Positions 1-52,786 of a stretch of DNA of 64,000 nucleotides are shown here, piece after piece; position 1 is the stretch's first letter, and every line of letters begins with the position of its first letter. The position numbers and the translations under genes were made by a program. Origin of the DNA: Amycolatopsis vancoresmycina (GTDB lineage Bacteria > Actinomycetota > Actinomycetes > Mycobacteriales > Pseudonocardiaceae). The DNA lies in the NCBI RefSeq assembly GCF_000716785.1, contig NZ_JNYY01000016.1, positions 179,259-243,258 on the forward strand, in the 5' to 3' direction. The notes below the pieces were generated by a model that saw nothing but the letters and a program-made list of their open reading frames with translations, was not told the origin of the DNA and ran no database searches.

Positions 1-3000
1 GGCCCAGGTACTCCAGCTCACCGCGCGCGGTCCAGCGCACGACGTCGCCGGTGCGGTACATCCGGGCGCCCGGCTCGCCGAAGGGGTCGGCGACGAACCG
101 GCCGGCGGTCAGGCCCGGCCGGCCGAGGTAGCCGCGGGCCACCCCGGCGCCGCCGAGGTGCAGCTCGCCGGGGACGCCGACCGGCACCGGCCGCATCCCG
201 GCGTCGAGGACGCAGGCGCGGAGGCCGGCGATCGGGCGGCCGATCGGCGGGGTGCGGTCGGTGTCGTGGTACCACGCGGTGGCGTACACAGTGGACTCGG
301 TGGGCCCGTAGATGTTGGCGATCCGGCTGCCGGGCAACGCCTTCCGGATGTCGTGCAGCGCGTGCAGCGTCAGCGCTTCGCCGGCCAGGACCACAGTGGA
401 CGGCCGGACCGACACCGCGCCCTGGGCCAGCAGCTGCGCGAACGCCGACGGCACGCCGCTGACCAGGCCGACCGGCCGGCCGGTGTCCTCGCCCTCGCCG
501 AGGGCCAGCACGTCCCGGACCACCTCGACGGTGGCGCCGGTCATCAGCGGCGCGAAGATCTCGAACACCGAGACGTCGAAGTTCAGCGACGTCGAAGCGA
601 CCACTGTGGACCCCGGCCGGAAGACGTCCCGGAAGTCGTTGCCCGCCCACGCCATCAGGTTCGCGGCGCTGCGGTGGGCGACCACGACCCCCTTGGGGCG
701 GCCGGTCGAGCCGGACGTGTGGATCACGTAGGCCGGGTGGTCCGGGTTCGTGGCGCGGCCGAGCGGCTCGCCGGAGCAGCCGTCGAGCAGGCCGGGGTCG
801 TCGAACGCCAAGGTGGGCACGGCGCCGGGACCGCGGCCGTCCGGCGTGAGCAGCAGGGCCGGGGCGGCGTCCTCGAGGATCAGTTCCTGGCGGTCGGCCG
901 GGTAGGCCGGGTCGACCGGGAGGTAGGCGGCGCCGGACTTGAGCACGCCGAGCAGCGCCACCAGGATCCGCTCGGTGCGCGGCAGCGAAACGGCGACGAA
1001 CCGCTCGGGCCCGGCACCCCGTCCGGCCAGGATCCGGGCCAGCCGGTTGGCCTGCTCGTCGAGCTCGGCGTAGGTGAGCGAGCGGCCCTCGCAGACGACG
1101 GCGACCGCGTCCGGCGTGCGGGCCGCCTGGGCCTCGAACAGCTGCGGCAGCGTGGCTTCCGGCGCGGCGGGCACCGGACCGCGGGAGAGCTCGGCGAGGT
1201 GGGCCAGCTCGGCGTCGCCCATGATCGGCAGCCCGGCCACCGGCCGGTGCGGCTCGGCGACCACGGCCGCGGCCAGCGTCCGCAGGTGCCCGGCGAACCG
1301 GTCGATCGTGGCGGCGTCGAACAGGGCGGTGTCGTACTCGATCGCGAAGCCGCGGCCCTGCGGCTGGAACTCCAGCACCAGGTCGAACCGGGCCCGGGGG
1401 CGGGGCAGATCGTGCTCGCCCAAGCGGAGGGCGCCCGCCTCCCGGGGCCGGACCAGGTCCTGCTGCAGCACCAGCAGGACCTGCACCAGCGGGGTCCGGC
1501 TCGGGTCACGGGCCGGCCGCAGGTCGTCGACGACCTGGTCGAAGGGCACTTCCGCGGCGGCGAAGGCCGCCAGCGTCGTTTCCCTGACCCGGCCGAGGAA
1601 GGTGTCGAACGGTTCTCCCCGGTCGATCGCGGACCGCAGGACGAGGGTGTTGACGAAGAAGCCGGCGAGCCGTTCGAGCTGGTCGTGGTCGCGGCCGGAC
1701 ACCGCGGTGCCGACGGCGACGTCGTCCTGCCCGGTGTAGCGGGCCAGCAGCACCTGGACGAGCGCGGTCAGCGTCGTGAACAACGTCGCCCCGGTGTCGT
1801 GGGCCAGCTCGGTGAGGCCGGCGGGCAGGTCGTACCGGCGGATCGCGCCTTCGGTGGCGCGCACGGGCGGGCGCGGCCGGTCGGTGGGCAGGTCCAGGGG
1901 CTCGAGCCCGGCGAGCTGCGCCCGCCAGTACGCCAGCTGCCGGTCGCGCAGCGGGCCGGCCAGCCGCTCGTGGTGCCAGCGGGAGTAGTCGCGGTAGCCG
2001 ATCTCCAGCGGGTCGAGCTTCTCCCCCGCGTACAGCGCGGCGAGCTCGTCGACGAGCAGGCCGACCGACCAGCCGTCGGTGACGATGTGGTGCTGGCTCA
2101 GCAGGAGCACGTGGTCTTCGGGGCCACGGCGGAGCAGCAGGGCACGCGTGAGCGGCCCGGTCCCCAGGTCGAACGGGCGGTCCAGCTCGGCCGCGAGCTG
2201 CCCGTCCAGGTCGGCTTCGGCCTCGGCCTCCCGCAGGGGGATGGTGCCCTCGTCGGCGACGACCTGGACGCCTTCGCCGTCGACGGTCCGGAACGTCGTC
2301 CGCAGTGACTCGTGCCGCGCGGCCAGCGCGTCGAGGCAGGCACGCAGCGCGTCGCGGTCCAGCGGGCCGGTGAGGGTGAGGCCGACACCGGCGTTGTACT
2401 CGGTGCTGCCGGGGTTCTGCCGGTCGAGCACCCAGAGGCGGCGCTGGACCGGCGACAGCGGCACCACGGCGTCGTGCGGCACGGACGCGATCCGGCCGGC
2501 GGCCGGGGTGTCACCGTCGGGCAGCAGCTCGGCGAGTTTCGCGATGGTGCGGGCGTCGAACACCACCCGCGGCGAGAGGTCGGCGCCGAACCGGGCGCGG
2601 ATCCGGGCGAGTGCGCGGGCGCCGAGGATCGAGTCGCCGCCGAGCTCGAAGAAGTCCGCGTCGACGCCGATGTCCGGGACACCCAGGACGTCGGCCCAGA
2701 TCTCGGCGAGGGCCCGCTCGGCCGGGGTCCGCGGCGGAAGGTGCGCGGCCTGCACCTGCGCCTGCCAGTCGGGTTCGGGCAGCGCGTCGCGGTCGAGCTT
2801 GCCGTGGTGGGTCAGCGGCATCCGCTCGAGCGGGACGATCGCGGCCGGGACCATGTAGGGCGGCAGCCGGTCGGCCGCGGCGGCGCGCAGCCGCGCCGGG
2901 TCGGCGTCTCCGGCGAAGTAGGCGACCAGGCGCTTGACGCGGTCCTCGCGGGCGACGACGACCGCCTCGCGGACACCGTCCTGCGCGAGCAGCAGCGCTT

Positions 3001-4252
3001 CGATCTCGCCGGGTTCGATCCGGAAGCCGCGGATCTTGACCTGGTGATCGGCCCGCCCGACGAACTCCAGCTCGCCGGTGGTAGTGCGGCGGACGACATC
3101 ACCGGTCCGGTACATCCGAGCGCCCGGCGCGCCGAAGGGGTCGGCCACGAACCGGCTCGCCGTCAGCCCCGGCCGGTCGAGGTAGCCGCGGGCCAGGCCC
3201 GGGCCGGTGACGTAGAGCTCGCCGATTTCGGCGGGGCGCAGCGCGTCGTCGAGGACGTAGGCGGTGGCCTCCGGCAGCGGGCGGCCGATCGGCGGCGTGC
3301 CCCCGGGGACCAGCGGGTCGCTCCAGGTGGCCACGACGGTGAACTCGGTGGGGCCGTAGGAGTTGATCATCCGGCGCCCGGGGGCCCAGGTCCGGACCAG
3401 TTCAGGCGGGCAGGCGTCCCCGCCGACGATCACCGTGCGGAAGTCCGGCAAGGCGTGCCCGGCCGGCAGCGTGGCGAGCGCGACCGGCGGGATGAGCGCG
3501 TGGGTGACCCGGTGCTCGGCCAGGACCTCGGCGAGCCGGTCGCCCAGCAGCGGGCCGGGTGGCGGCACGACCAGGGCCGCCCCGTGCGGCAGCGCCATGC
3601 CGAGCTCCAGGATGGACGCGTCGAAGCTCGGCGAGGAGAACTCGAGGACCCGGTCGCCGGGCCGCACGTCGTACTGCTCGCGCATGGCGGCGAAGAAGCC
3701 GGGCAGGCCGCGGTGGGTGACGAGCACGCCCTTGGGCACGCCGGTCGAGCCGGACGTGTAGATGAGGTAGGCCGGGTGGTCGACGTGCAGCGGGCGCGTC
3801 CGGTCGGCGTCGGTGAGGTCGGTGTCCGGCTCGGCCCGATCGTCGAGTTCGCCGAGGTCGAGGGTGGCTTCCGCGTGCCCGCGGCCCACGACCAGCACCG
3901 GCCGCGCGTCGGCCAGCATGAACGCGATCCGCTCGGCGGGCTGGCCGGGGTCGACGGGCAGGAAGGCCACGCCGGCCTTGGCCGCCGCCAGCTGCGCCAC
4001 GACGAGGTCGGCCGACCGCGGCAGGACGAGCGCGACGACGCCCTCCGGGCCTGCGCCGCGGGAGACCAGCAGCCGCGCCAGCCGGTTCGCCCGTGCGTTC
4101 ACCGCCGCGTAGCTCGTCGCGACGCCGGCGCCGGTCAGCGCCGTCGCCCCCGGAGTGCGGGCGACCTGCGCTTCGAACAACTCGGCCAGGGTGCGCACGG
4201 GCACCGATCTGTCGTCGTCGGCGGCGGGAACCGAGACGTCGTATCGCGGCAT
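1..4252 (-). CDS. Non-ribosomal peptide synthetase, N-terminal part (A-T-C-A...). The start codon is at 4252 and the gene continues beyond the window start.
   Basis: The minus-strand translation has no stops from 4252 down to 1. It begins [14 protein letters not shown] with the A1 motif ([14 protein letters not shown]) about 30 aa in. Further motifs are A3 ([14 protein letters not shown]), A8 ([35 protein letters not shown], plus strand about 3080-3200), PCP ([12 protein letters not shown], about 2630-2680), the condensation motif HHIVTDGWS (about 2070-2095), and a second A domain with A1 [15 protein letters not shown]2 [16 protein letters not shown]3 [15 protein letters not shown] and A8 [21 protein letters not shown] at 1-120. 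A GAAAGG Shine-Dalgarno lies upstream of the ATG. It is missing from the ORF track because it runs off the window edge. Confidence 0.9.
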
Positions 4253-41890: not shown

Positions 41891-43804
41891 TCAGCCGATG
41901 TTCTTCAGAAACAGGGACTTCGCCGTGCTCGTCTTCGAGTCGTCGACGCCGTGCCCGTGGGTGTAGTCGCGCTGTTCGTTGTGCGCCCAGTCCGCGATCG
42001 GCTTGCCGCCGACGTCGAGGTGGTGGAACGCGGACCCGTCCCAGCCGAACTGGTAGATCTTCGCGTGGTCGGCGTAGTACGGCGTGTACGCCGCGCCCGC
42101 GGTGATCTGCTTGGTCATCGTGTTGGCGAAGAAAACGTTGCGGGGGCCGGAAGAACCGGACCACTTGACCGCCTTCTGCCCGGCCGACCAGTAGATCGGG
42201 AACCACGCCGAGTCGTCCGGTGCGTCGCCGCCCTCGTCGCCGCAGTGCGCGGTGCAGTTGCCCGAGCGGTGGGCGTAGGAGACGTTGTTCGTGTTGTTCT
42301 CGAACAGGTTGTTGCGCTCGTAGCCGCCGTGGATGTTGAAGTCGGAGTCGATGTCGTTGCCGATCACCACGTTGCCCGAGGCCGACCACTGGAAGGTGAA
42401 GTGCCGCAGGTCACGGGTCGTGTTGCCGGCGTAGAGCGAGTCCCACACCCGCGAGCCGCGGAAGTAGCCGTTGCCGCCCTTGCCCTTGTTCCACGAACCG
42501 TCCAGCTCGTTGTTCACGATCTGCAGGTTCTTGGCCTCCTCGGTCACGATCGGGTGCGACCCGGTCATGATCGCGTGGATGCCGCGCACCCACGAGTTCG
42601 CCGCCCACTTGAACACGATCCCCTGCATGGCCAGGGAAGGGGCCAGGTTGCCGTAGTTGTCCTTGGCCTGTTCGGGCGTCACGCCGGGCGGCGGCGCCTG
42701 GGTGAAGGCGAAGTCCTCGAAGCCGACGCCGACGACCGGGTCCACGATCGGCGCCGCCTTCGACGCGTACACCGTGCCGTCGATCGGCGCCGAACCGTCC
42801 GAAGTGGAGTCGACCGGGACGTCGTACTCGAGCGGCTTGTCGACGGACACCGTGTGGTTCTTGGTGTCCACGGCGGTGACGGTGAACCACTGCTGGCGCA
42901 TGTGCAGGTTCTGCAGCGGCCACGTCGTGGGCACCGCGTTCATCGACTGGTAGAACTTCATGCTGTTCGCGGCCCGGATGTTGACGAAGCCGCCGACCTT
43001 CAGGCTCGCCGTCTTGGCGCCGGTGGCCAGGTAGACGGTCCGGTCGCCGGTGCGCGCGGCGAAGCCCTTGTCGCCGGGCTTTTCCCGCAGTTTCAGGCCG
43101 GCCTTCCAGTGCACGTTGACCGTGCCCTCGAAGAGGTCCTTCCGGTTGGCGGGCGCGGACGCGTACTGGTCGGCGTAACTCGGTTCCACGCCGCGCGACT
43201 GCACCCGGAACAGGCCGCGGCCGGGCCACAGCCAGCCCCCGGAGCCGTCCTCGTAGTTCATTTCGTGCTGGTCCCACTGGTCGCCGTCGGGGGTCACCAC
43301 GTCGTATTCGGTGTTCTTGTCCGGCCGGTACACGAACTTCGTCCGGTCGGTGCCGGCGCCGCGGAGGATCAGGTAGCTGGCGTCGACGTGGATTTCGTGC
43401 GTGACGTCCAGCGTGCCGGCCGGGAACGTGATCAGGCTGAGCTTGCCGTAGCCCGCCGAGGGCGAGCACGAGGTGTGGATCCGGTCGATGGCCGCCTGGA
43501 TGCCGGCGGTGTCGTCGACCCCGTCGTCGGGCTTGACGCGGTAGGTGGTGGCGAGCTGGGCCGCGGTGATCCGGCAGCTCGCGCTGGGGTTGACCGCGTC
43601 GGCGCCGGGCAGGTCCTGCCCGCCGCGGAAACCGGCCTTGCTCCAGTCGTAGAGGCCCGGCACCGGCGCCGCGCGGTTGCCCGCCGACGTGTCCAGGGTG
43701 GTCAGTGCGCCCGAGCCGGGTGCGGCGACGGCAGCCGGGGCGAAGCCGGCCGCAACGCACACGGCGGCCACGATCAGTGGTGCGGATTTTTTCCTGCGGG
43801 ACAA
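41891..43804 (-). CDS. Secreted right-handed parallel beta-helix protein (pectate-lyase-fold carbohydrate-active enzyme candidate)
   Basis: It has a signal peptide (MSRRKKSAPLIVAAVCVAAGFAPAAVAAPG) and Asn/Gly-rich beta-helix rungs (IVNNELDGSWNKGKGGNGYF, NNLFENNTNNVSYAHRSGN). Confidence 0.6.
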   Translation of the reverse strand: MSRRKKSAPLIVAAVCVAAGFAPAAVAAPGSGALTTLDTSAGNRAAPVPGLYDWSKAGFRGGQDLPGADAVNPSASCRITAAQLATTYRVKPDDGVDDTAGIQAAIDRIHTSCSPSAGYGKLSLITFPAGTLDVTHEIHVDASYLILRGAGTDRTKFVYRPDKNTEYDVVTPDGDQWDQHEMNYEDGSGGWLWPGRGLFRVQSRGVEPSYADQYASAPANRKDLFEGTVNVHWKAGLKLREKPGDKGFAARTGDRTVYLATGAKTASLKVGGFVNIRAANSMKFYQSMNAVPTTWPLQNLHMRQQWFTVTAVDTKNHTVSVDKPLEYDVPVDSTSDGSAPIDGTVYASKAAPIVDPVVGVGFEDFAFTQAPPPGVTPEQAKDNYGNLAPSLAMQGIVFKWAANSWVRGIHAIMTGSHPIVTEEAKNLQIVNNELDGSWNKGKGGNGYFRGSRVWDSLYAGNTTRDLRHFTFQWSASGNVVIGNDIDSDFNIHGGYERNNLFENNTNNVSYAHRSGNCTAHCGDEGGDAPDDSAWFPIYWSAGQKAVKWSGSSGPRNVFFANTMTKQITAGAAYTPYYADHAKIYQFGWDGSAFHHLDVGGKPIADWAHNEQRDYTHGHGVDDSKTSTAKSLFLKNIG

Positions 43805-45676: not shown

Positions 45677-47986
45677 TCAGCGATCCTGGCCCAGCTTGTT
45701 CAGCTGGTACCGGCTCACCGAGTCCGTCTTCTCGTCGCGAAGCGTCAGGTACACGACACCGTTCGCCTCCACATCGGCGGTCAGCACGATGTCACCGCCC
45801 GTCGCCACGACGGGGATGGTCCCGAAGACCAGGCCCGATGATCGCGGAATCTCGACGAACGTCATCTCGTGGGTGGTGCCGGCCTTGCCGGTCAGGCGGA
45901 AGCTTTCGGCATCCCTGGTCGGGATCGTCCTCGACGAATCCAAGAGGGTCATGACTTCTTTGTTGCTTCCGGCGTCGGGGGACACCAGGTGCAGGCTGCC
46001 TTCCTTCCCCGACACGCGAACGCCCACCCCGAACCGCAGCGCGTTCAGCAGCAGGAAGCCCCGCTGGAACCCGGTCAGCACGCCGGCCTGGGTGCCGAGA
46101 CCGTGCGCCACGGCGGTCTCCTGGTAGCTCGAGACGACTTCGGCACCGGGGAGGACCGAGGCGATCTGCTCGGACACGGTGAAGATCTTCGTGCCCTGCC
46201 CGGCCAGGAGGACCTTCCCGCCGCGGCTGATCCACGCGCTCACGTCCTCGCCGAACCGGAGCCGGGGGAAGACGGCGCCGAGGGTCGAGCGGATGGTGTC
46301 GTTCAGCTCGGCGGTGAGCTGCCGGAACCGCGCGCGGTCGAGTTCGATGCTGATGTCGACCAGGCCGTGGGAACCGCCGTCGAGGTCGGTCAGCAGCATG
46401 GTCGTGGCATCCCGGTAGCCGAGGTCCCGCTTGGCGCGCTCGGCCTCCCGGCGCAGCTTGTCGCGCACGGTCGACGTCAGTTCGCCGTGCCACCCGTGCA
46501 CCGTCCGCAGCTGGTCCTCGGCGTAGGCCACCAGCGCGTCGTCGAAGTCGAGCCCGCCCACCTCGTTGCTGCCGGTGACCGCCCTGACCTCCGCGATCCC
46601 CTCCCCGGCTTCGACCAGCGCGACGTCGAACGTGCCCCCGCCGAGGTCGACGACCAGGTAGTCCTGCTCCTGCTCGGGGGTCGCCATCAGGGTCAGCAGG
46701 GACGCGGCGTTCGGCTCCCCGATCATCCGGGTGACGGTCAGGTCGGCCAGTTCGAAGGCTTGTTCCAGCGTGTCGATCTGGCGCAGCGTGAAGTTCGCCG
46801 GGTGGGAGGCGAGGCACCGCCGGACCGGCGTGCCGAGCGCCTCCTCGGCGTTGCGCCGGAGCGATCGCAGGATCAAGCCGACCGCGAGCACCGGTTCGAT
46901 GCTGCGGCCGTTGACGGAATAGCCGGCCGAGCGCCCGAGATCGCGTTTCGCGTGCCGGATGGTCGACGACGGCCGGTACGGCGTCGCCTCGACGGCCGCG
47001 GCGCCGACCAGGTAGTCCATGTCCGGCAGGAAGTGCAGCACGGAGGGCACCAGCGGCCGTCCGTCCGGCCCGGGGAGCAGCAGGACGTCACCTTCGGGCC
47101 GGTACCACGACACGACGGAGTAACTCGTGCCGAAGTCGATGGCGAGCAGCGGATCGTCGACGGCACCGGGAGGAACCACCGGAGCGACGCGCCTGGCCCG
47201 CCGCTCGGTGCCGATCGGCGTCGTCGCGCGCCACTGGTTGCGCGTCCGCTCGGAGACGAGTTCGAGGTGCTGCACGCCGAGCGGCTCGACCCGGGAGTGC
47301 GGTCGCTGGTCGGGCTTCCCGTGTGCCCTGGCCAAGGCCGGCACCTGGGTCGAAAGGTAGGCATCGAGTTCGTGGATCGTCCGGCACCGGCCCGCGGGAC
47401 TGAACGCGGAACACAGCGCTTCGGTGAAGACGCCCGCCCTGATGCCGTCGACCTCGTACGACACCCGCCCCGGACGGCACGAGCAGAAGGAGACGACACC
47501 CGGCGGGCACAGGGCGTCGACGTCCACGCGAGGCAGCGACGCCGAAGCCGCCTTCCCGCCGTCCAGGACGTTCCGGCAGGCATCGAGGAACAGCACGAGG
47601 TGCGGCGCTGCGGCCGCACCGAGGTAGCGCACGATCACGTCGAACCGCAGGGCCGTGTCCTCCACGGCCGCCCGCACGCAGTCGATCGGCAGCAGGTACT
47701 GCGTGTTGTCGCCGGCTTGGAAGCCGTGGCCGGAAAAGAAGAAGTAGAGGATCCCGTCGGGCCGGGGATCGGCCGCCATCCGGGTGAGGTGCCGCAGCAG
47801 GTTGGTCCTCGTCGGCCGGTGCGACGCCGGCATGTTGTCGTGCAGGAGGACGAGGTCTGCATCGTCGACGCCGCAGACCGTGCGCAGCGTGTCCGCGACC
47901 CTCGCCGCATCGGTCTGCGCGTGGCGCAGCGGAGCGATGTCGGGGTCCTCGTAGCCCGCGCAGCCGACCACGAGCGCGCGGTTCAC
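45677..47986 (-). CDS. Caspase-domain (peptidase C14)-Hsp70/actin-fold ATPase fusion protein
   Basis: The N-terminal caspase domain has a His-Cys dyad (FFFSGHGFQ ... LVLFLDACRN). The C-terminal part has Hsp70 nucleotide-binding-domain motifs: LAIDFGTSYSVVS (phosphate 1), RMIGEPNAASL, VVDLGGGTFDVALV (phosphate 2), GSNEVGGLDFDDALV, VLLAGQGTKIFTVSE (adenosine), YQETAVAHGLGTQAG. A beta-rich tail follows. Confidence 0.8.
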   Translation of the reverse strand: MNRALVVGCAGYEDPDIAPLRHAQTDAARVADTLRTVCGVDDADLVLLHDNMPASHRPTRTNLLRHLTRMAADPRPDGILYFFFSGHGFQAGDNTQYLLPIDCVRAAVEDTALRFDVIVRYLGAAAAPHLVLFLDACRNVLDGGKAASASLPRVDVDALCPPGVVSFCSCRPGRVSYEVDGIRAGVFTEALCSAFSPAGRCRTIHELDAYLSTQVPALARAHGKPDQRPHSRVEPLGVQHLELVSERTRNQWRATTPIGTERRARRVAPVVPPGAVDDPLLAIDFGTSYSVVSWYRPEGDVLLLPGPDGRPLVPSVLHFLPDMDYLVGAAAVEATPYRPSSTIRHAKRDLGRSAGYSVNGRSIEPVLAVGLILRSLRRNAEEALGTPVRRCLASHPANFTLRQIDTLEQAFELADLTVTRMIGEPNAASLLTLMATPEQEQDYLVVDLGGGTFDVALVEAGEGIAEVRAVTGSNEVGGLDFDDALVAYAEDQLRTVHGWHGELTSTVRDKLRREAERAKRDLGYRDATTMLLTDLDGGSHGLVDISIELDRARFRQLTAELNDTIRSTLGAVFPRLRFGEDVSAWISRGGKVLLAGQGTKIFTVSEQIASVLPGAEVVSSYQETAVAHGLGTQAGVLTGFQRGFLLLNALRFGVGVRVSGKEGSLHLVSPDAGSNKEVMTLLDSSRTIPTRDAESFRLTGKAGTTHEMTFVEIPRSSGLVFGTIPVVATGGDIVLTADVEANGVVYLTLRDEKTDSVSRYQLNKLGQDR

Positions 47987-48357
47987 GTCCCGGTGCCCTC
48001 GGTACGGCGGAAGACCAGCTTCACTCCCCCCTTGATTTCGCTGGAGAAGGACCCGACGAGCCGGACTTCGCCCTTCGCGGTGAGGTCCAGGTTCACCTCG
48101 AAGGCATCGAGCCCGAACGCTTCCGATGCCTCCCCGGCCCGCCGGAAGGCGTTGGCCAGCCGCGAGCAGACGGCCGACAGGTTCCGCGCCAGCTCTTCCG
48201 AGTCCAGTTCACCGATCCGCCCCGCGACCTGGCGCGCGGTCGAGAACAGGCCCTTCTCACCGTCGACGCCCGGATCCACCCACACGATCGGGATGCCGGC
48301 TCCGCTCACCGCCGTCACTGCCTCGCCCTCGCCTTCGTCCGACGCACCAGCTTGCAC
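47983..48357 (-). CDS. Small Trypco2-like (CU044_2847-like) protein, about 110-124 aa, start uncertain
   Basis: Its stop overlaps the start of the caspase-Hsp70 gene (ATGA). The C-terminal pattern LDAFEVNLDLTAKGEVRLVGSFSSEIKGGVKLVFRRTEG resembles trypsin-co-occurring domain 2 proteins. Start candidates are the GTG at 48357 and an internal GTG 13 codons in. Confidence 0.45.
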   Translation of the reverse strand: MQAGASDEGEGEAVTAVSGAGIPIVWVDPGVDGEKGLFSTARQVAGRIGELDSEELARNLSAVCSRLANAFRRAGEASEAFGLDAFEVNLDLTAKGEVRLVGSFSSEIKGGVKLVFRRTEGTGT

Positions 48358-48496: not shown

Positions 48497-49117
48497 ATGA
48501 CGATGTCGCTGTCGGCCGAACTGTGGCCGGACGTGCAGCCCGAGACCGCGCGGCGGCTCATGCTCGCCGGGGTCGAGGCCTTCGCCAAGCGCGGGTACCA
48601 CGCCACCACCACGCGGGACATCGCCGGGGCCGCGGGGATGTCGCCCGCCGCGCTCTACGTGCACTTTCCCTCCAAGGCCGCGCTGCTGTTCGCCATCAGC
48701 CGCTACGGGCACGAGCAGACCCTCGCGCTCGTCGAGAACGTCGTCGCCAAGGAAGCCGATCCGGTGGCGCGGATCCGGCTCATCGTCGAGGACTTCGTGG
48801 CCTGGCACGCTCGGCGGCACACCGTCGCCCGGGTCGTCCAGTACGAGTTGCAGGCGCTGCCCGAGCAGGAGTTCGAGGTGGTCGCCGAGCTGCGGCGGCG
48901 GATCGAGCGGATCGTGCGGGAAGTCATCGCCGCGGGCACCGACGCCGGCGTGTTCACCGTGTCGGACCCGCACGTCGCCGCGCGGGCCGTGCTCTCGCTC
49001 GGGGTCGACGTCGCCCGCTGGTACACCGAGCGGGCGCGGCAGACACCGACCGCGCTCGGCAAGGAGTACGGCGGGCTCGTGCTGCGCATGCTCGGCGTGA
49101 TGCCCGTCACAGACTGA
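48497..49117 (+). CDS. TetR-family transcriptional regulator
   Basis: The ATG at 48497 is preceded by GGGAGG. The HTH is LMLAGVEAFAKRGYHATTTRDIAGAAGMSPAALYVHFPSKAAL. The long track ORF from 45869 is junk upstream of this point. Confidence 0.8.
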   Translation: MTMSLSAELWPDVQPETARRLMLAGVEAFAKRGYHATTTRDIAGAAGMSPAALYVHFPSKAALLFAISRYGHEQTLALVENVVAKEADPVARIRLIVEDFVAWHARRHTVARVVQYELQALPEQEFEVVAELRRRIERIVREVIAAGTDAGVFTVSDPHVAARAVLSLGVDVARWYTERARQTPTALGKEYGGLVLRMLGVMPVTD

Positions 49118-49184
49118 GCGGTCGTTCAACACCCCTCGCCAATAGCGGTCACACTCTGTCCGCTTTCTCTGCCAGAGTGACTCC

Positions 49185-50273
49185 GTGCCGAAACTGGACA
49201 CGCGCGCCCTCAACCGCGCCACGCTCGCCCGCCAGCTGCTGCTCGAACGGGCCACCCTCCCCGTGCACGACGCCGTCGCACACCTCGGCGGCCTGCAGGC
49301 GCAGGAGCCGCAGGAACCGTTCACCGGGCTGTGGTCACGGCTGCGCGGCTTCGCCCCGGCGGCGCTGGACGAGCTGCTGACCGGGCGGCACGTGGTGCGG
49401 ACCCACCTCATGCGCCGGACCGTGCACCTGCTCACGGCGGGCGACGTGCTCGCCTGGCGGACCCGCTTCGACGCGATGCTGCGCCAGCGCGTCCTCGGCA
49501 CCTACCGCCGCGAACTCGCGGACGTCGACCTCGGCGAGCTCGCGGCCGCGGGCCGGGCGGTGCTGGCCGACGGCGAGCCGCGCTCGATGGGCGAGCTGGC
49601 CAGGGCGGTCGCCGGCCGGTGGCCCGCCGCGGGGCCGCGGCCGCTCGGCGAGATGCTCGTCGCCGCGCTGATCCCGATGGTCCAGCTGCCGCCACGCGGG
49701 CTGTGGCGGACCAAGGCCGGCGTGCGCAACCTGCCGCTGCCGGCGTGGCTGGGCCGTGACGGCGACCCGCTCGACCCGGCCGACGGTGTCGGGCAGGTCC
49801 TGGTGCGCCGCTACCTGGCGGCCTACGGCCCGGCGGCGACGGCGGACCTGCGCGCGTGGTCCGGCCTGGCCGGGCTGCCGGCGGCGGTGAAGGCGGTGCG
49901 CGAAGAGCTGGTGGCCTTCCGCGACGAGCGCGGCCGCGAGCTGCTCGACCTGCCGGACGCCCCGCGCCCCGGCCCGGACACGCCGGCACCGGTCCGGTTC
50001 CTGCCGGCGTTCGACAACGCGATCCTCGGCTACGACGACCGCACCCGCATCATCGACGACGCCCACCGCGGGCTGTCGGTGGCGGGCGAGCGGGTGGTGC
50101 TGGTCGACGGCCGGGTCACCGCCACCTGGACAACCGACGGTGACGCGGTCGTGGTGCGGCCGCTGCGGCGCCTGACCGCACGAGAACGCCGTGAGGTGGC
50201 CGCCGAAGGAAGCGAACTGGCGGCGTTCCTGACCGACGGCGAGAGCGACCGCGCGCGGGTGGAACCGAGCTAG
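49185..50273 (+). CDS. Winged-helix DNA-binding domain protein (AlkZ/YcaQ-like DNA-glycosylase family candidate)
   Basis: The N-terminus LNRATLARQLLLERATLPVHDAVAHLGGLQAQEPQEP is characteristic of the DUF1006/AlkZ-like family. This is a family-level call only. Confidence 0.55.
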   Translation: MPKLDTRALNRATLARQLLLERATLPVHDAVAHLGGLQAQEPQEPFTGLWSRLRGFAPAALDELLTGRHVVRTHLMRRTVHLLTAGDVLAWRTRFDAMLRQRVLGTYRRELADVDLGELAAAGRAVLADGEPRSMGELARAVAGRWPAAGPRPLGEMLVAALIPMVQLPPRGLWRTKAGVRNLPLPAWLGRDGDPLDPADGVGQVLVRRYLAAYGPAATADLRAWSGLAGLPAAVKAVREELVAFRDERGRELLDLPDAPRPGPDTPAPVRFLPAFDNAILGYDDRTRIIDDAHRGLSVAGERVVLVDGRVTATWTTDGDAVVVRPLRRLTARERREVAAEGSELAAFLTDGESDRARVEPS

Positions 50274-51250
50274 GGCCCGACCGCCCGCGCGAACCGCTCC
50301 GCCACCTCCCGCAGCCGCTCCACCAGTCCCGCCGGTGCCTCCTCCACCACGAAGTCGTACCCCCACTGCGCCAGGTGGTACGGCACCGCGTCCAGACTGT
50401 TCGCCCCGGTCCGCACCCGGCAGCTGTGCTCGTCGACCGCCTCCACCACCCCCGCCGTCGGCGGGATCCGGCGGGCCAGCACCTCGGCCGGTGCGGCCAC
50501 GCGCAGCACGAACTGGTGCGAGTACGGCGCCGTCGAGATCTGCCGCGAGACGTACTCGGCCAGGTCCGGCGCCGGTGGCTCGCGCGGGGCGAACCGAAAG
50601 CCCGCCGACGGCACGCCCGTGATCCGGTCGACCCGGAACGTCCGCCACGCCTCGCGGCCGAGGTCGAACGCCACCAGGTACCAGCGCCGTCCCGTGTGGA
50701 CCAGGCGCAGCGGCTCCACCGACCGGTCCGTCGAGGCTCCCGTGCGGTCGCCGTAGCCGAAGCGCAGCCGCTCGTGGTCGCGGCAGGCCGCCGCGATCGC
50801 CGTCAGCACCGACGCGTCCACCGTCGGCCCCGCCCCCGGCAGGGAGAGCGTCGCCGCGTGCAGGGCGCCGACCCGGGGGCGCAGGCGCGCCGGCAGCACC
50901 TGCTCCAGCTTCGCCAGCGCGCGCACCGACGTCTCCTCGATGCCGCTGACCGTGCCGCTCGCCGCCGTGCGCAGGCCGACCGCGACCGCCACCGCTTCGT
51001 CGTCGTCGAGCAGCAACGGCGGCAGGGCCGCGCCCGCGCCGAGCCGGTAGCCGCCCGCCACGCCCGGGGTCGCGTGCACCGGGTAGCCGAGGGACCGCAG
51101 CCGCTCGACGTCGCGGCGGATCGTGCGGACGTCGACCTCGAGCCGGGCCGCCAGGTCCGCGCCCGGCCAGTCCCGGCGGGCCTGCAGCAGGGACAACAGC
51201 CGGAGCAGGCGTTCCGAGGTGCCGTACATGGCACGCAGTGTGCCAGACAT
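50270..51250 (-). CDS. WYL-domain transcriptional regulator (HTH-WYL-WCX, YafY-like)
   Basis: It has an HTH (LLRLLSLLQARRDWPGADLAARLEVDVRTIRRDVERLRSLGYPV), a WYL-like core (EPLRLVHTGRRWYLVAFD) and a WCX-like tail. The start is at 51250, with an alternative at 51229. The upstream part of the track ORF is junk. Confidence 0.7.
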   Translation of the reverse strand: MSGTLRAMYGTSERLLRLLSLLQARRDWPGADLAARLEVDVRTIRRDVERLRSLGYPVHATPGVAGGYRLGAGAALPPLLLDDDEAVAVAVGLRTAASGTVSGIEETSVRALAKLEQVLPARLRPRVGALHAATLSLPGAGPTVDASVLTAIAAACRDHERLRFGYGDRTGASTDRSVEPLRLVHTGRRWYLVAFDLGREAWRTFRVDRITGVPSAGFRFAPREPPAPDLAEYVSRQISTAPYSHQFVLRVAAPAEVLARRIPPTAGVVEAVDEHSCRVRTGANSLDAVPYHLAQWGYDFVVEEAPAGLVERLREVAERFARAVGP

Positions 51251-51340
51251 CGAGGACAGATCCGGTCCGCGATCCGCCGGATAGTGCAGTCGGGCGGTCA
51301 AACACTTGCCAGGCGCCGCCCCGGCCGGAAAGAGTGGCGC

Positions 51341-51799
51341 ATGCCGATCGACCCGCACGCCCTGCTCGCCGTCGCCCGCGAAGAAGCCGAGCTCGGCAAG
51401 GCCGAAGGCGGCGTGCCGATCGGGGCCGCGCTGTTCGACACCGCGGGCACCCTGCTCGGCCGCGGGCACAACCGGCGCGTGCAGGACGGCGACCCGTCGA
51501 TGCACGCCGAGACCGCGGCCTTCCGCAACGCCGGCCGCCGCCCGCACTACCGCGACACGATCATGGTCACCACGCTCTCGCCGTGCTGGTACTGCTCCGG
51601 GCTCGTCCGTCAGTTCGGTATCGGGCGCGTGGTCGTCGGCGAAGCGGAGACGTTCCACGGCGGGCACGACTGGCTCGCCGGGCTGGGCGTGGAGATCACC
51701 TTGCTCGACGATCCCGGCTGCACCGCGCTGATGACGGAGTTCATCGCCGCGCGCCCGGACCTGTGGTTCGAGGACATCGGGGTGGAAAAGTCCGAATAG
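51341..51799 (+). CDS. Zinc-dependent nucleoside/nucleotide deaminase (cytidine/deoxycytidylate-deaminase fold)
   Basis: The ATG is at 51341 and it has the Zn-binding motifs HAE ... PCxxC (SMHAETAAF, LSPCWYCSGL). It is divergent from the WYL regulator. Confidence 0.75.
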   Translation: MPIDPHALLAVAREEAELGKAEGGVPIGAALFDTAGTLLGRGHNRRVQDGDPSMHAETAAFRNAGRRPHYRDTIMVTTLSPCWYCSGLVRQFGIGRVVVGEAETFHGGHDWLAGLGVEITLLDDPGCTALMTEFIAARPDLWFEDIGVEKSE

Positions 51800-51823
51800 G
51801 ACAGTGCTGGACGAGGAGCCGGT

Positions 51824-52786
51824 ATGCCGTCAACCGTTCCGCTCGTGGACCTGTCGCCGTGGTTCGCGGGCACGTCCGAGGGCCGCGCCGACGTCGCCGC
51901 CCGGATCGACCACGCCCTGCAGGAGTCCGGCTTCCTGCTGGTCACCGGGCACGGCGTGCCGGACGGCCTGCGCACGCGGACCCGTGAGCTGGCCCGGCAG
52001 TTCTTCGCGCTGCCGGAGGACGTCAAGCAGCGCTACGCGGTCACCGTCGGCGGCCGCGGCTGGCTGCCGCCCGGCGTCGAGGCCAACGGGTACGCGGAGG
52101 GCACCGAGACACCGCCGGACCTCAAGGAGTCCTACTCCGCGGGTGCGGACGCCAAGCTCGGCGTCGCCGAGATCGACGGGTTCTGGTTCCAGCCCAACGT
52201 GTGGCCGCACGAGGTGCCCGGCCTCGGCGAGGTGGCCACCGAGTACATGCGCCGGATGCGGGCGCTGTCGGACCACCTGCTGGAGATCTTCGCCGCGGCG
52301 CTCGGCCTCGCGGAGAGCCACTTCACCCGGCACACCGCGCACCCGACGTACACCTTCAACATCAACTGGTACCCGCCGATGACCCACGTCGGGCCGCCGG
52401 AGCCGGACCAGTTCCGGATCGGCCCGCACACCGACTTCGGCACGGTCACCGTGCTCGACCGCCAGGCCGGGCTGGGCGGGCTGCAGGTCTGCACGGCCGA
52501 CGGCGGGTGGGAGGACGCGCCGTTCCACCCGGACGCGTTCACGGTGAACATCGGCGACCTGATGGCCCGCTGGACCGGCGACCGCTGGCGGTCGACGCGC
52601 CACCGCGTCCTGCCGCCGCCGGCATCGGCCCCGGACGAGGACCTGGTGTCCCTGATCTTCTTCTACGAAACCGACCACGACGCCCGGATCACGTCGCTGG
52701 CGCCGCCGCTGGGCACCCGGACCTACCCCGAGGTGATCGCGTCGGAGTACCTGCGGGAGAAGCTCGACGCCATCACGATGAGCTGA
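51824..52786 (+). CDS. 2-oxoglutarate/Fe(II)-dependent oxygenase (isopenicillin-N-synthase-like)
   Basis: It has an N-terminal DIOX_N region, the HxD...H facial triad (GPHTDFGTVTVL ... RHRV) and the RxS motif (RWRSTRHRV). A GAGGAG lies upstream of the ATG. Confidence 0.8.
   Translation: MPSTVPLVDLSPWFAGTSEGRADVAARIDHALQESGFLLVTGHGVPDGLRTRTRELARQFFALPEDVKQRYAVTVGGRGWLPPGVEANGYAEGTETPPDLKESYSAGADAKLGVAEIDGFWFQPNVWPHEVPGLGEVATEYMRRMRALSDHLLEIFAAALGLAESHFTRHTAHPTYTFNINWYPPMTHVGPPEPDQFRIGPHTDFGTVTVLDRQAGLGGLQVCTADGGWEDAPFHPDAFTVNIGDLMARWTGDRWRSTRHRVLPPPASAPDEDLVSLIFFYETDHDARITSLAPPLGTRTYPEVIASEYLREKLDAITMS

Follow-up and report, generated by a model that had tools for sequence, protein, structure and literature searches.

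Protease-activated pore toxins, viz. Pepco, EACC1 and gasdermin, are emerging as a major logic of bacterial cell suicide, and the sensors known from such systems are mostly STAND/Avs ATPases. In bacterial gasdermin–protease systems, as in eukaryotic caspase–gasdermin pyroptosis, a pore-forming protein is freed of its inhibitory C-terminal peptide by a protease and the infected cell is killed. The locus described here lies in a stretch of 64,000 nucleotides from Amycolatopsis vancoresmycina (assembly GCF_000716785.1, contig NZ_JNYY01000016.1, positions 179,259 to 243,258 of the forward strand; this whole stretch is referred to as the window), and it consists of a gene for a caspase–Hsp70 fusion protein preceded by a small gene for a protein of the Pepco family. 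In the family that this locus represents, the sensor slot appears to be filled by an ATP-competent, lid-less Hsp70. The explanation that we favour, and consider probable with a good measure of doubt, is that the two genes form a cell-suicide or abortive-infection cassette, in which the Hsp70 would gate the caspase, the caspase would trim Pepco, and the resulting pore would kill the cell. With the gasdermin systems this cassette would share the concept of a caspase-family protease freeing a pore-former; however, gasdermin is unrelated to Pepco, Pepco is reported to be pre-assembled, and the candidate sensor in the window is an Hsp70 and not an NLR or inflammasome.

Of the described systems, SsPepco–SsAvs4 of Streptomyces subrutilus provides the experimental precedent. 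SsPepco forms SDS-resistant 9-10-mer beta-barrels, and the trypsin-type protease of SsAvs4 removes its ~2-kDa C-terminal tail (~20 amino acids (aa)) after a conserved Ile, the exactly truncated SsPepco being able to kill E. coli (Evans et al., PMC12642450). According to the main text of the same work, the proteases linked to Pepco carry diverse sensors (viz. FGE, TM-STAND and peptidoglycan-binding domains), and the class in which Pepco is combined with a caspase–FGE fusion is shown in its Fig. 5A (PMC12642450). Cassettes combining EACC1 with a caspase have been described both by Kaur et al. 2020 (PMC7159879) and by Evans et al. (PMC12642450), and some of these EACC1–caspases are fused to a lid-less DnaK-like domain that is ~50% identical to DnaK (PMC12642450). 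The Pepco and EACC1 modules that have been tested respond to phage proteins (PMC12642450).

The Pepco gene and the caspase–Hsp70 fusion gene

The window has a GC content of ~72%, and both open reading frames of the cassette are on its minus strand. Their features, with the residues of Pepco numbered according to its 108-aa form, are as follows.

45677..47986, minus strand: caspase–Hsp70 fusion gene, 769 aa, stop codon included (Pfam, NCBIfam, homologs, AlphaFold2 model)
47222..47986, minus strand: metacaspase/orthocaspase-like C14 protease domain, aa 1-255 (H87 at 47726-47728, C137 at 47576-47578; S1 residues D26 and D135)
47150..47221, minus strand: connector between the caspase and the nucleotide-binding domain (NBD), aa 256-279; end of the motif W-x3-P-[IL]-G259-x-E261-x-R263, then a variable basic stretch
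46058..47149, minus strand: Hsp70 NBD, aa 280-643, with the ATP-site residues kept
45680..46057, minus strand: interdomain linker FLLLN and lid-less, remodelled substrate-binding domain (SBD-beta), aa 644-769, the proposed ligand-sensing end (alignment with DnaK)
47983..47986, minus strand: GTGA overlap of the Pepco stop codon TGA and the fusion start codon GTG (read directly from the sequence as ...GGG ACG TGA ACC...)
47983..48309, minus strand: Pepco gene, starting with the GTG at 48309 and encoding 108 aa; product predicted to be a latent pore toxin of the beta-barrel type (Pfam Pepco)
48004..48012, minus strand: codons of F100-R101-R102, the F-x-R motif closing the Pepco core; predicted cleavage site with Arg at P1
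47986..48003, minus strand: codons of the six-residue C-terminal Pepco tail TEGTGT, which is predicted to be lost when the toxin is activated

A preliminary description of this locus, made from the sequence alone, had reported a single 769-aa reading frame in which a caspase with SGHG and DACR dyad motifs is fused to an Hsp70, preceded by a translationally coupled small gene. The fusion is confirmed by Pfam, with Peptidase_C14 matching aa 2-215 (E=3e-20) and HSP70 matching the remainder (E=2e-50), each with a score well in excess of the gathering threshold. Among annotated proteins, an A. vancoresmycina 'Hsp70 family protein' has exactly this sequence (100% identity). An AlphaFold2 model built from an alignment of 120 sequences has a predicted local distance difference test (pLDDT) score of 93.9 and a predicted template modelling (pTM) score of 0.89. 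The junction of the two genes reads GTGA instead of the ATGA given in that description; by this overlap of 4 nt the Pepco gene is translationally coupled with the fusion gene, as had been claimed.

The N-terminal part of the fusion has the caspase-hemoglobinase fold with a His-Cys dyad, and the two motifs containing the dyad (S85-G-H87-G and D135-A-C137-R) are invariant across 35 diverse homologs, which bears out its identification as a caspase. The best sequence matches of this domain among solved structures are the fungal and trypanosome metacaspases. In phmmer alignments to 4afr and 7qp0, its residues D26 and D135 align with Asp95 and Asp211 of TbMCA2, which accommodate basic P1 residues (PMC6426788, PMC4357240), and due to this match with the acidic S1 aspartates of TbMCA2 the fusion caspase is predicted to be specific for Arg/Lys. 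Directly after C137 there is a disordered loop (aa 139-155) with a conserved GGK145, in which G144-K145 is nearly invariant. In caspases and metacaspases, the corresponding position is that of the intersubunit linker, at which they undergo autoprocessing. Residues 145-148, which fall within aa 140-149 (window 47540-47569), are the one segment that was modelled with low confidence. The alignment of 82 fusion homologs further reveals a family-specific motif, N-x-W-x3-P-[IL]-G259-x-E261-x-R263 (aa 246-271, window 47174-47251), which runs into the connector, is modelled with high confidence, and whose residues G259, E261 and R263 do not vary among the 35 homologs. This motif could be an autoprocessing site, an interdomain latch or a structural contact, and both the GGK145 loop and the R263 motif are candidates for regulation by autoprocessing.

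The Hsp70 part shows 29% identity with the DnaK of E. coli (residues 280-754), and residues 280-755 align with residues 4-463 of the G. kaustophilus DnaK. Residues D284, T287, K347, E424, D447, T452 and D454 of the fusion correspond to D8, T11, K70, E171, D194, T199 and D201 of DnaK (the E. coli DnaK sequence used in this matching is presumably accurate, as the landmark positions agreed). In the fusion family these seven ATP-site positions vary hardly or not at all, and within the 35 homologs invariance is seen for D284/G286, K347, E424, D447-LGGGT452-x-D454, G477-G478-x-D480-x-D482 and G596/G598. The ATP-binding residues are intact on sequence as well as structural alignment, and to judge from sequence and model the NBD is ATP-competent. 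The assignment of an Hsp70-type NBD by the preliminary description, based on the motifs DFGTSYS, DLGGGTFD, VGGLDFD and LAGQGTKI, therefore holds, these motifs being conserved; however, the similarity to Hsp70 is not limited to the NBD, as what was described as a beta-rich tail is an SBD-beta from which the lid is missing. The SBD-beta aligns to DnaK 389-493 and the fusion ends at about DnaK 500, where the helical lid would begin; the model is without C-terminal helices, and the alpha-helical lid (SBD-alpha) is absent. The model superposes on the ATP-state docked Hsp70s 5e84, 7kzu and 4b9q, with 453 residues superposed on ATP-BiP (5e84). The hydrophobic linker between the NBD and SBD-beta, which has the family consensus LLLD, is FLLLN in the window protein. 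Because the canonical residues of the DnaK peptide pocket are lost and the inter-strand loop region is expanded relative to DnaK, the sequence of SBD-beta suggests a remodelled, lineage-specific ligand site and not generic binding of unfolded proteins.

In NCBIfam the fusion has a similarity of the DnaK/HscA type, with scores far below the equivalog cut-offs for DnaK (172 bits vs 648) and HscA (143 vs 709). Its nearest non-fusion ATPase relatives are stand-alone HscC-like 'Hsp70 family proteins' (P0083-P0120), which are 26-38% identical and have the same NBD motifs. These atypical Hsp70s are without a caspase domain; the window protein differs from them also by the missing lid and by a deletion of 24 aa in subdomain IB of the NBD. 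The ~24 residues lacking from subdomain IB (DnaK 75-98) would be located around aa 350-356 (window 46950-47000), and of the residues by which DnaK contacts DnaJ, N170 and T173 are changed to G423 and N426 while R167 is kept as R420. The deletion and these changes may bear on the action of host J-proteins or GrpE. No J-domain or GrpE gene was found within ~5 kb of the cassette, in agreement with what had been stated earlier.

The small protein matches the Pfam family Pepco (PF24393) with E=8.7e-23 and 81.4 bits (cutoff 27), the match covering model positions 17-112 of 112. Close homologs of this protein carry a precomputed PF24393 assignment, and an annotated 108-aa homolog (P0121) is 99% identical to it. 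As Trypco1 and Trypco2 are given as other names of Pepco by Evans et al. 2025 (bioRxiv preprint, PMC12642450), the earlier identification of this protein as Trypco2-like was essentially right. Further, as is characteristic of Pepco, it is a small (~110 aa) protein encoded beside a cysteine/serine protease gene, with a length in this case of 108 aa and an overlap of 4 nt. The GTG at 48309, which is the start of the annotated product, is preceded by a GAGG-rich ribosome-binding site; an alternative GTG is present at 48318, and the maximal reading frame, starting from 48357 (124 aa), is probably too long. The C-terminal half of the protein contains strands with alternating hydrophobic and polar residues, as would suit a barrel whose outer surface is hydrophobic. 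The conserved core is closed by F-x-R in all 13 of the caspase-linked Pepcos (13/13), the Arg being invariant, and the Pfam model stops exactly at this Arg both in the window Pepco and in an FGE-type Pepco of S. meliloti. The tail that follows has a length of 1-9 residues in the Hsp70-linked Pepcos and of 26 residues in the FGE-linked Pepco. Because the conserved Arg at the core end fits the predicted basic specificity of the protease, and parallels the Ile of the trypsin-linked Pepcos, we predict that cleavage occurs after R102 (or R101) with loss of TEGTGT. The conserved F-x-R end thus offers a concrete, testable cleavage site, which would extend the Ile rule of the trypsin-linked Pepcos.

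Relationship to the described systems

With H87 and C137 intact in the adjacent protease and an Hsp70 in the sensor position, the window locus has the organisation of a Pepco–protease module, and it is a member of the class in which Pepco is combined with a caspase and a variable sensor, with a divergent, lid-less Hsp70 in the sensor slot. Like SsPepco–SsAvs4, it comes from an actinomycete, the Pepco-family protein is encoded upstream and a protease-sensor fusion downstream, and Pepco consists of a core and a C-terminal tail. However, the SsAvs4 protease is a trypsin-like serine protease cleaving with Ile at P1 and releasing a tail of ~20 aa, whereas the window protease is a metacaspase-like Cys protease, the core ends in Arg and the tails are 1-9 aa; the sensor of SsAvs4 is a STAND (Avs4) ATPase recognising the phage portal, whereas the sensor candidate in the window is the lid-less Hsp70. 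A second related arrangement is seen on the S. meliloti plasmid pSymA (WP_088200861), where a related caspase (35% identity) has an adjacent Pepco with the same F-x-R core end. This locus differs from the window in that its sensor is formylglycine-generating-enzyme-like, its Pepco gene is located downstream and its tail is 26 aa long.

The EACC1–caspase–DnaK fusions (the 'System 4' of Kaur et al., PMC7159879) resemble the window locus in having a small membrane-active effector precursor upstream of a caspase–lid-less Hsp70, and the logic of the two types of cassettes is probably the same. However, this resemblance should not be interpreted as showing that the window fusion belongs to the EACC1 family, a candidate assignment that is rejected, as its upstream gene encodes Pepco and not EACC1 (PF19953), and it scores 68.4 bits with NF047832, the model for caspases of the EACC1-associated type, for which the cutoff is 140. 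The EACC1-type proteins P0090 and P0102 reach 247 and 222 bits with this model, and 809 and 613 bits with the DnaK model, compared to 172 bits for the window protein; upstream of P0102 there is a gene for EACC1 (PF19953). The Hsp70 of the EACC1 type is near-canonical (~50% identity to DnaK) whereas that in the window shows 29% identity, and between the window fusion and P0102 the Hsp70 parts are 28% identical and the similarity of the caspases is marginal. This low Hsp70 identity and the barely detectable caspase similarity indicate that the window-type fusion is independent of the EACC1-type lineage. On the evidence of these sequences, a caspase has been fused to a lid-less Hsp70 on at least two occasions, the pore-forming partner differing between them, and the second independent lineage suggests that the coupling of an Hsp70 to a caspase was selected at least twice. 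That an unrelated lineage has the same design also points to a coupling that is functional rather than accidental. The Trypco2/VMAP ternary system (Kaur et al. 2020) was likewise considered and rejected, because Trypco2 in such systems occurs together with a trypsin-like peptidase, whereas the partner here is a C14 caspase and the neighbouring genes include none for trypsin, vWA or MoxR.

More distant relatives of the window caspase carry FGE, GUN4, WD40, TPR or CHAT domains. One of these distant relatives is fused to the C-terminal (client-binding) domain of DnaJ, and another (P0245) has a dynamin-like segment; parts of the chaperone system may recur as caspase-linked sensors.

Due to the fact that the module class is known, and that a DnaK-like sensor on a caspase has already been raised for the EACC1 systems, the present finding is not categorically new. 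The statement that this system was not characterised is correct for the exact Pepco–caspase–Hsp70 architecture, but not for the class as such, as combinations of Pepco, a protease and a sensor have been characterised and the EACC1-type caspase–DnaK fusions have been noted. Within the searchable literature (which is without subscription-only papers and the supplementary tables of the preprint), the Pepco-linked divergent Hsp70 lineage, its independence from EACC1, the hypervariable SBD-beta and the prediction of the F-x-R site appear to be undescribed.

Distribution and divergence of the cassette

Full-length homologs of the caspase–Hsp70 fusion, 35-82% identical to it, form ~82 clusters at 90% identity; the Amycolatopsis type has 769 aa and the Streptomyces type ~950 aa. 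They are found in Amycolatopsis, Micromonospora, Plantactinospora, Actinomadura, Catellatospora, Actinoplanes, Catenulispora, Saccharothrix and Streptomyces, as well as in Limnocylindrales (Chloroflexota) and in a metagenome-assembled genome (MAG) of Pyrinomonadaceae (Acidobacteriota). At E<=1e-30, an exhaustive search with the caspase and connector gave 98 representatives of 50% clusters; the majority have lengths of 780-1000 aa, as would suit the fusion, both domains being confirmed for those that are among the full-length homologs. The family thus comprises ~80-100 sequence clusters and is widespread in actinomycetes, including the industrial strain A. mediterranei S699, in which the Pepco gene is AMES_6334. 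In a scan of contigs 6 of the 80 loci were true fusions, the rest being ordinary DnaK genes detected through the universal DLGGGTFD motif, and loci obtained by look-ups of contigs for the exact proteins were added. In this manner 13 loci including that in the window, from Actinomycetota, Chloroflexota and Acidobacteriota, were examined. A word-based homolog search with Pepco itself gave 9 proteins, and the diversity of Pepco was therefore taken from the examined loci.

In 12 of the 13 loci a Pepco gene is present immediately upstream of the fusion gene, either with an overlap of 4 nt (9 loci) or with a gap of 9-13 nt (3 loci), and the conservation of the small gene next to the fusion, on which the preliminary description had made its finding depend, is thereby established. 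In the exception (L084, a metagenome contig with P0075), the upstream region 3560-4001 translates in a broken frame to fragments resembling the Pepco C-terminus, and it is either a decaying cassette or the result of a sequencing frameshift. This locus adjoins AEP-like primase and Mom-like genes, which suggests that it lies on a mobile element. The flanking genes differ from locus to locus, and tblastx comparisons between the loci revealed no synteny of the flanks, only GC-rich noise. As Pepco adjoins the fusion in nearly all of these loci while the flanks are unrelated, the conserved unit is exactly the two genes. Between the loci of Catellatospora tritici (L002) and a Limnocylindrales MAG (L081), the caspase and NBD are 57-69% identical and the C-termini of Pepco are near-identical (TLTFRRRG/P), which suggests a cross-phylum horizontal transfer of the cassette.

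The different parts of the fusion have not diverged to the same extent. The caspase and NBD are well conserved, whereas SBD-beta is the most variable part in both length and sequence: it retains only the scaffold motifs LLLD, TTIPT, D-x-DAN and QLN, it shows insertions of up to +114 aa, and it is followed in some homologs by C-terminal extensions of up to +196 aa, some of them TPR-like. The pairwise ratios of nonsynonymous to synonymous substitution rates (dN/dS) are 0.14-0.36 for the caspase, 0.22-0.51 for the NBD, 0.36-0.75 for SBD-beta and 0.82 for the C-extension, these values coming from three pairs with dS near saturation. The fusion is under purifying selection, with divergence rising from the caspase to the NBD and from the NBD to SBD-beta, and such a gradient would be anticipated for a fusion with its sensor at the peptide-binding end.

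Proposed mode of action, rival explanations and neighbouring genes

In the cassette as we envisage it, the Pepco precursor (~108 aa) would, by analogy with SsPepco, be pre-assembled as a 9-10-mer beta-barrel that is harmless until its C-terminal tail is removed, and in the resting state the Hsp70 module would hold the protease inactive. A trigger polypeptide, which could be a phage protein or a non-native protein induced by infection or stress, would then bind to the fast-evolving SBD-beta or to the C-extensions of the longer homologs, and the signal would pass via the LLLD linker and the ATPase cycle, licensing the caspase, probably by dimerisation or oligomerisation. The caspase would cut Pepco after the invariant Arg of F-x-R, dropping the tail of 1-9 residues, and the trimmed barrel would permeabilise the membrane, the cell dying before phage release. 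If so, the caspase is not the terminal effector, as the preliminary description had supposed; the analogy with SsPepco–SsAvs4 leads us to revise this, Pepco being probably the latent pore toxin and the caspase its activator.

Several observations do not sit easily with this explanation. The tail of the window Pepco has only 6 aa, and that of some homologs only 1-2 aa, compared to ~20 aa in SsPepco, which makes activation by tail removal less obviously applicable; the canonical peptide-pocket residues of DnaK are not conserved in SBD-beta, as noted earlier; the dN/dS values have the narrow base indicated above; and the work of Evans et al. 2025, from which the analogy is drawn, is a preprint. 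Further, no defence island can be recognised around the window locus, searches of the phage and plasmid collections gave no copy of the fusion, and PADLOC reports no system model but only a generic caspase match. For other loci the context is different, as several of them adjoin HNH, PD-(D/E)xK, ParE/antitoxin, large DEAD/ResIII helicase or AEP-primase/Mom genes; these neighbours may hint at mobile or defence contexts.

The same two proteins could also serve a different trigger, with the Hsp70 monitoring proteostasis (heat, antibiotics, ageing hyphae) and the outcome being a stress-induced or developmental cell death of filamentous and multicellular bacteria in place of anti-phage defence. This we consider unlikely, though it would suit the concentration of the family in filamentous actinomycetes and the location of the window locus outside defence islands; such systems are also statistically linked to the multicellular habit (Kaur et al. 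2020, PMC7159879), and a stress-response role has been raised for the EACC1–DnaK fusions (Evans et al., PMC12642450). However, a fast-evolving, length-variable SBD-beta together with TPR-like C-extensions looks more like an arms-race sensor than like a generic binder of unfolded proteins, the canonical residues of the hydrophobic pocket are not retained, some of the loci are located beside toxin-antitoxin, HNH, PD-(D/E)xK, helicase or Mom/AEP genes, and it is to phage proteins that the tested Pepco and EACC1 modules answer. The gene order and translational coupling, which imply a roughly stoichiometric co-synthesis, and the natural binding of extended peptides by the SBD-beta of Hsp70 proteins are what one would expect if the Hsp70 were instead a holdase or delivery arm of Pepco, binding its tail or amphipathic helix so that the barrel stays soluble or the tail is offered to the caspase, while the signal entered elsewhere, e.g. 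through Ca2+, autoprocessing at K145/R263 or a host factor. Metacaspases are commonly regulated by Ca2+ and autoprocessing (PMC9622860), and the conserved disordered GGK145 loop and the G-x-E-x-R263 motif are in line with this. It is nevertheless quite improbable. Between Amycolatopsis species Pepco is well conserved, with 87% identity, whereas within the fusion it is SBD-beta that varies most, with 61% identity in the comparable pair, and a conserved binding pair would predict the opposite; moreover, other Pepco-linked proteases use non-chaperone sensors (Avs4, FGE), so Pepco needs no chaperone.

Coupling of chaperones to proteases is a common logic, and it may be asked if the fusion is a non-lethal quality-control protease, in which misfolded clients caught by the Hsp70 are degraded by the fused caspase, and Pepco acts not as a toxin but as an adaptor or regulator. 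We regard this as very improbable: homologs of Pepco are pore-forming toxins by experiment (PMC12642450), metacaspase-like enzymes are site-specific and not processive, the patchy distribution, suggestive of horizontal gene transfer, and the unrelated flanks are atypical of a housekeeping function, and the fusion is far below the DnaK and HscA equivalog cut-offs.

Beyond the cell-suicide cassette itself, it can be proposed tentatively, and with more doubt than conviction, that the lid-less Hsp70 is an innate-immune receptor, whose SBD-beta would sense phage-derived or infection-induced non-native polypeptides and whose ATP cycle would license the caspase and lead to a pyroptosis-like pore, this arrangement having arisen at least twice independently, in the Pepco-type and EACC1-type lineages. 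If true, Hsp70 immune receptors would join the STAND/NLR ATPases of bacteria as a new sensor class of the pattern or 'proteostasis-guard' kind. The ligand of SBD-beta would tell if infection or proteotoxic stress is detected in bacteria by a recognition of peptides as in chaperones, and the cassette would also provide a minimal two-protein system for the control of a protease by Hsp70 allostery.

With regard to the rest of the window, no match to the promoter/terminator consensus was found in a scan of it, although such a scan says little in an actinomycete of 72% GC, and tRNA or Rfam features were likewise not found. A second 'Pepco-like' tblastn match at 2837-3148 on the plus strand (29% over 104 aa, E=6e-4) was rejected as spurious, being a GC-rich shadow reading frame with antisense-like composition and no Pfam match. 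At 41891-43804 on the minus strand there is a 637-aa reading frame with a signal-peptide-like N-terminus and no Pfam match at E<=1e-5, an uncharacterised secreted protein that is apparently unrelated to the cassette. The flanks of the cassette contain genes for TetR, an AlkZ-like glycosylase, a WYL regulator, a deaminase, a 2OG oxygenase, an MmyB-like helix-turn-helix protein and NmrA. Of these, the divergent TetR, the AlkZ-like DNA glycosylase, the WYL-domain regulator, the deaminase (cytidine/deoxycytidylate type) and the 2OG-Fe(II) oxygenase are located at 48497-52786, and none of them is kept beside the cassette elsewhere. WYL regulators and AlkZ-type glycosylases are sometimes tied to DNA-damage or defence functions.

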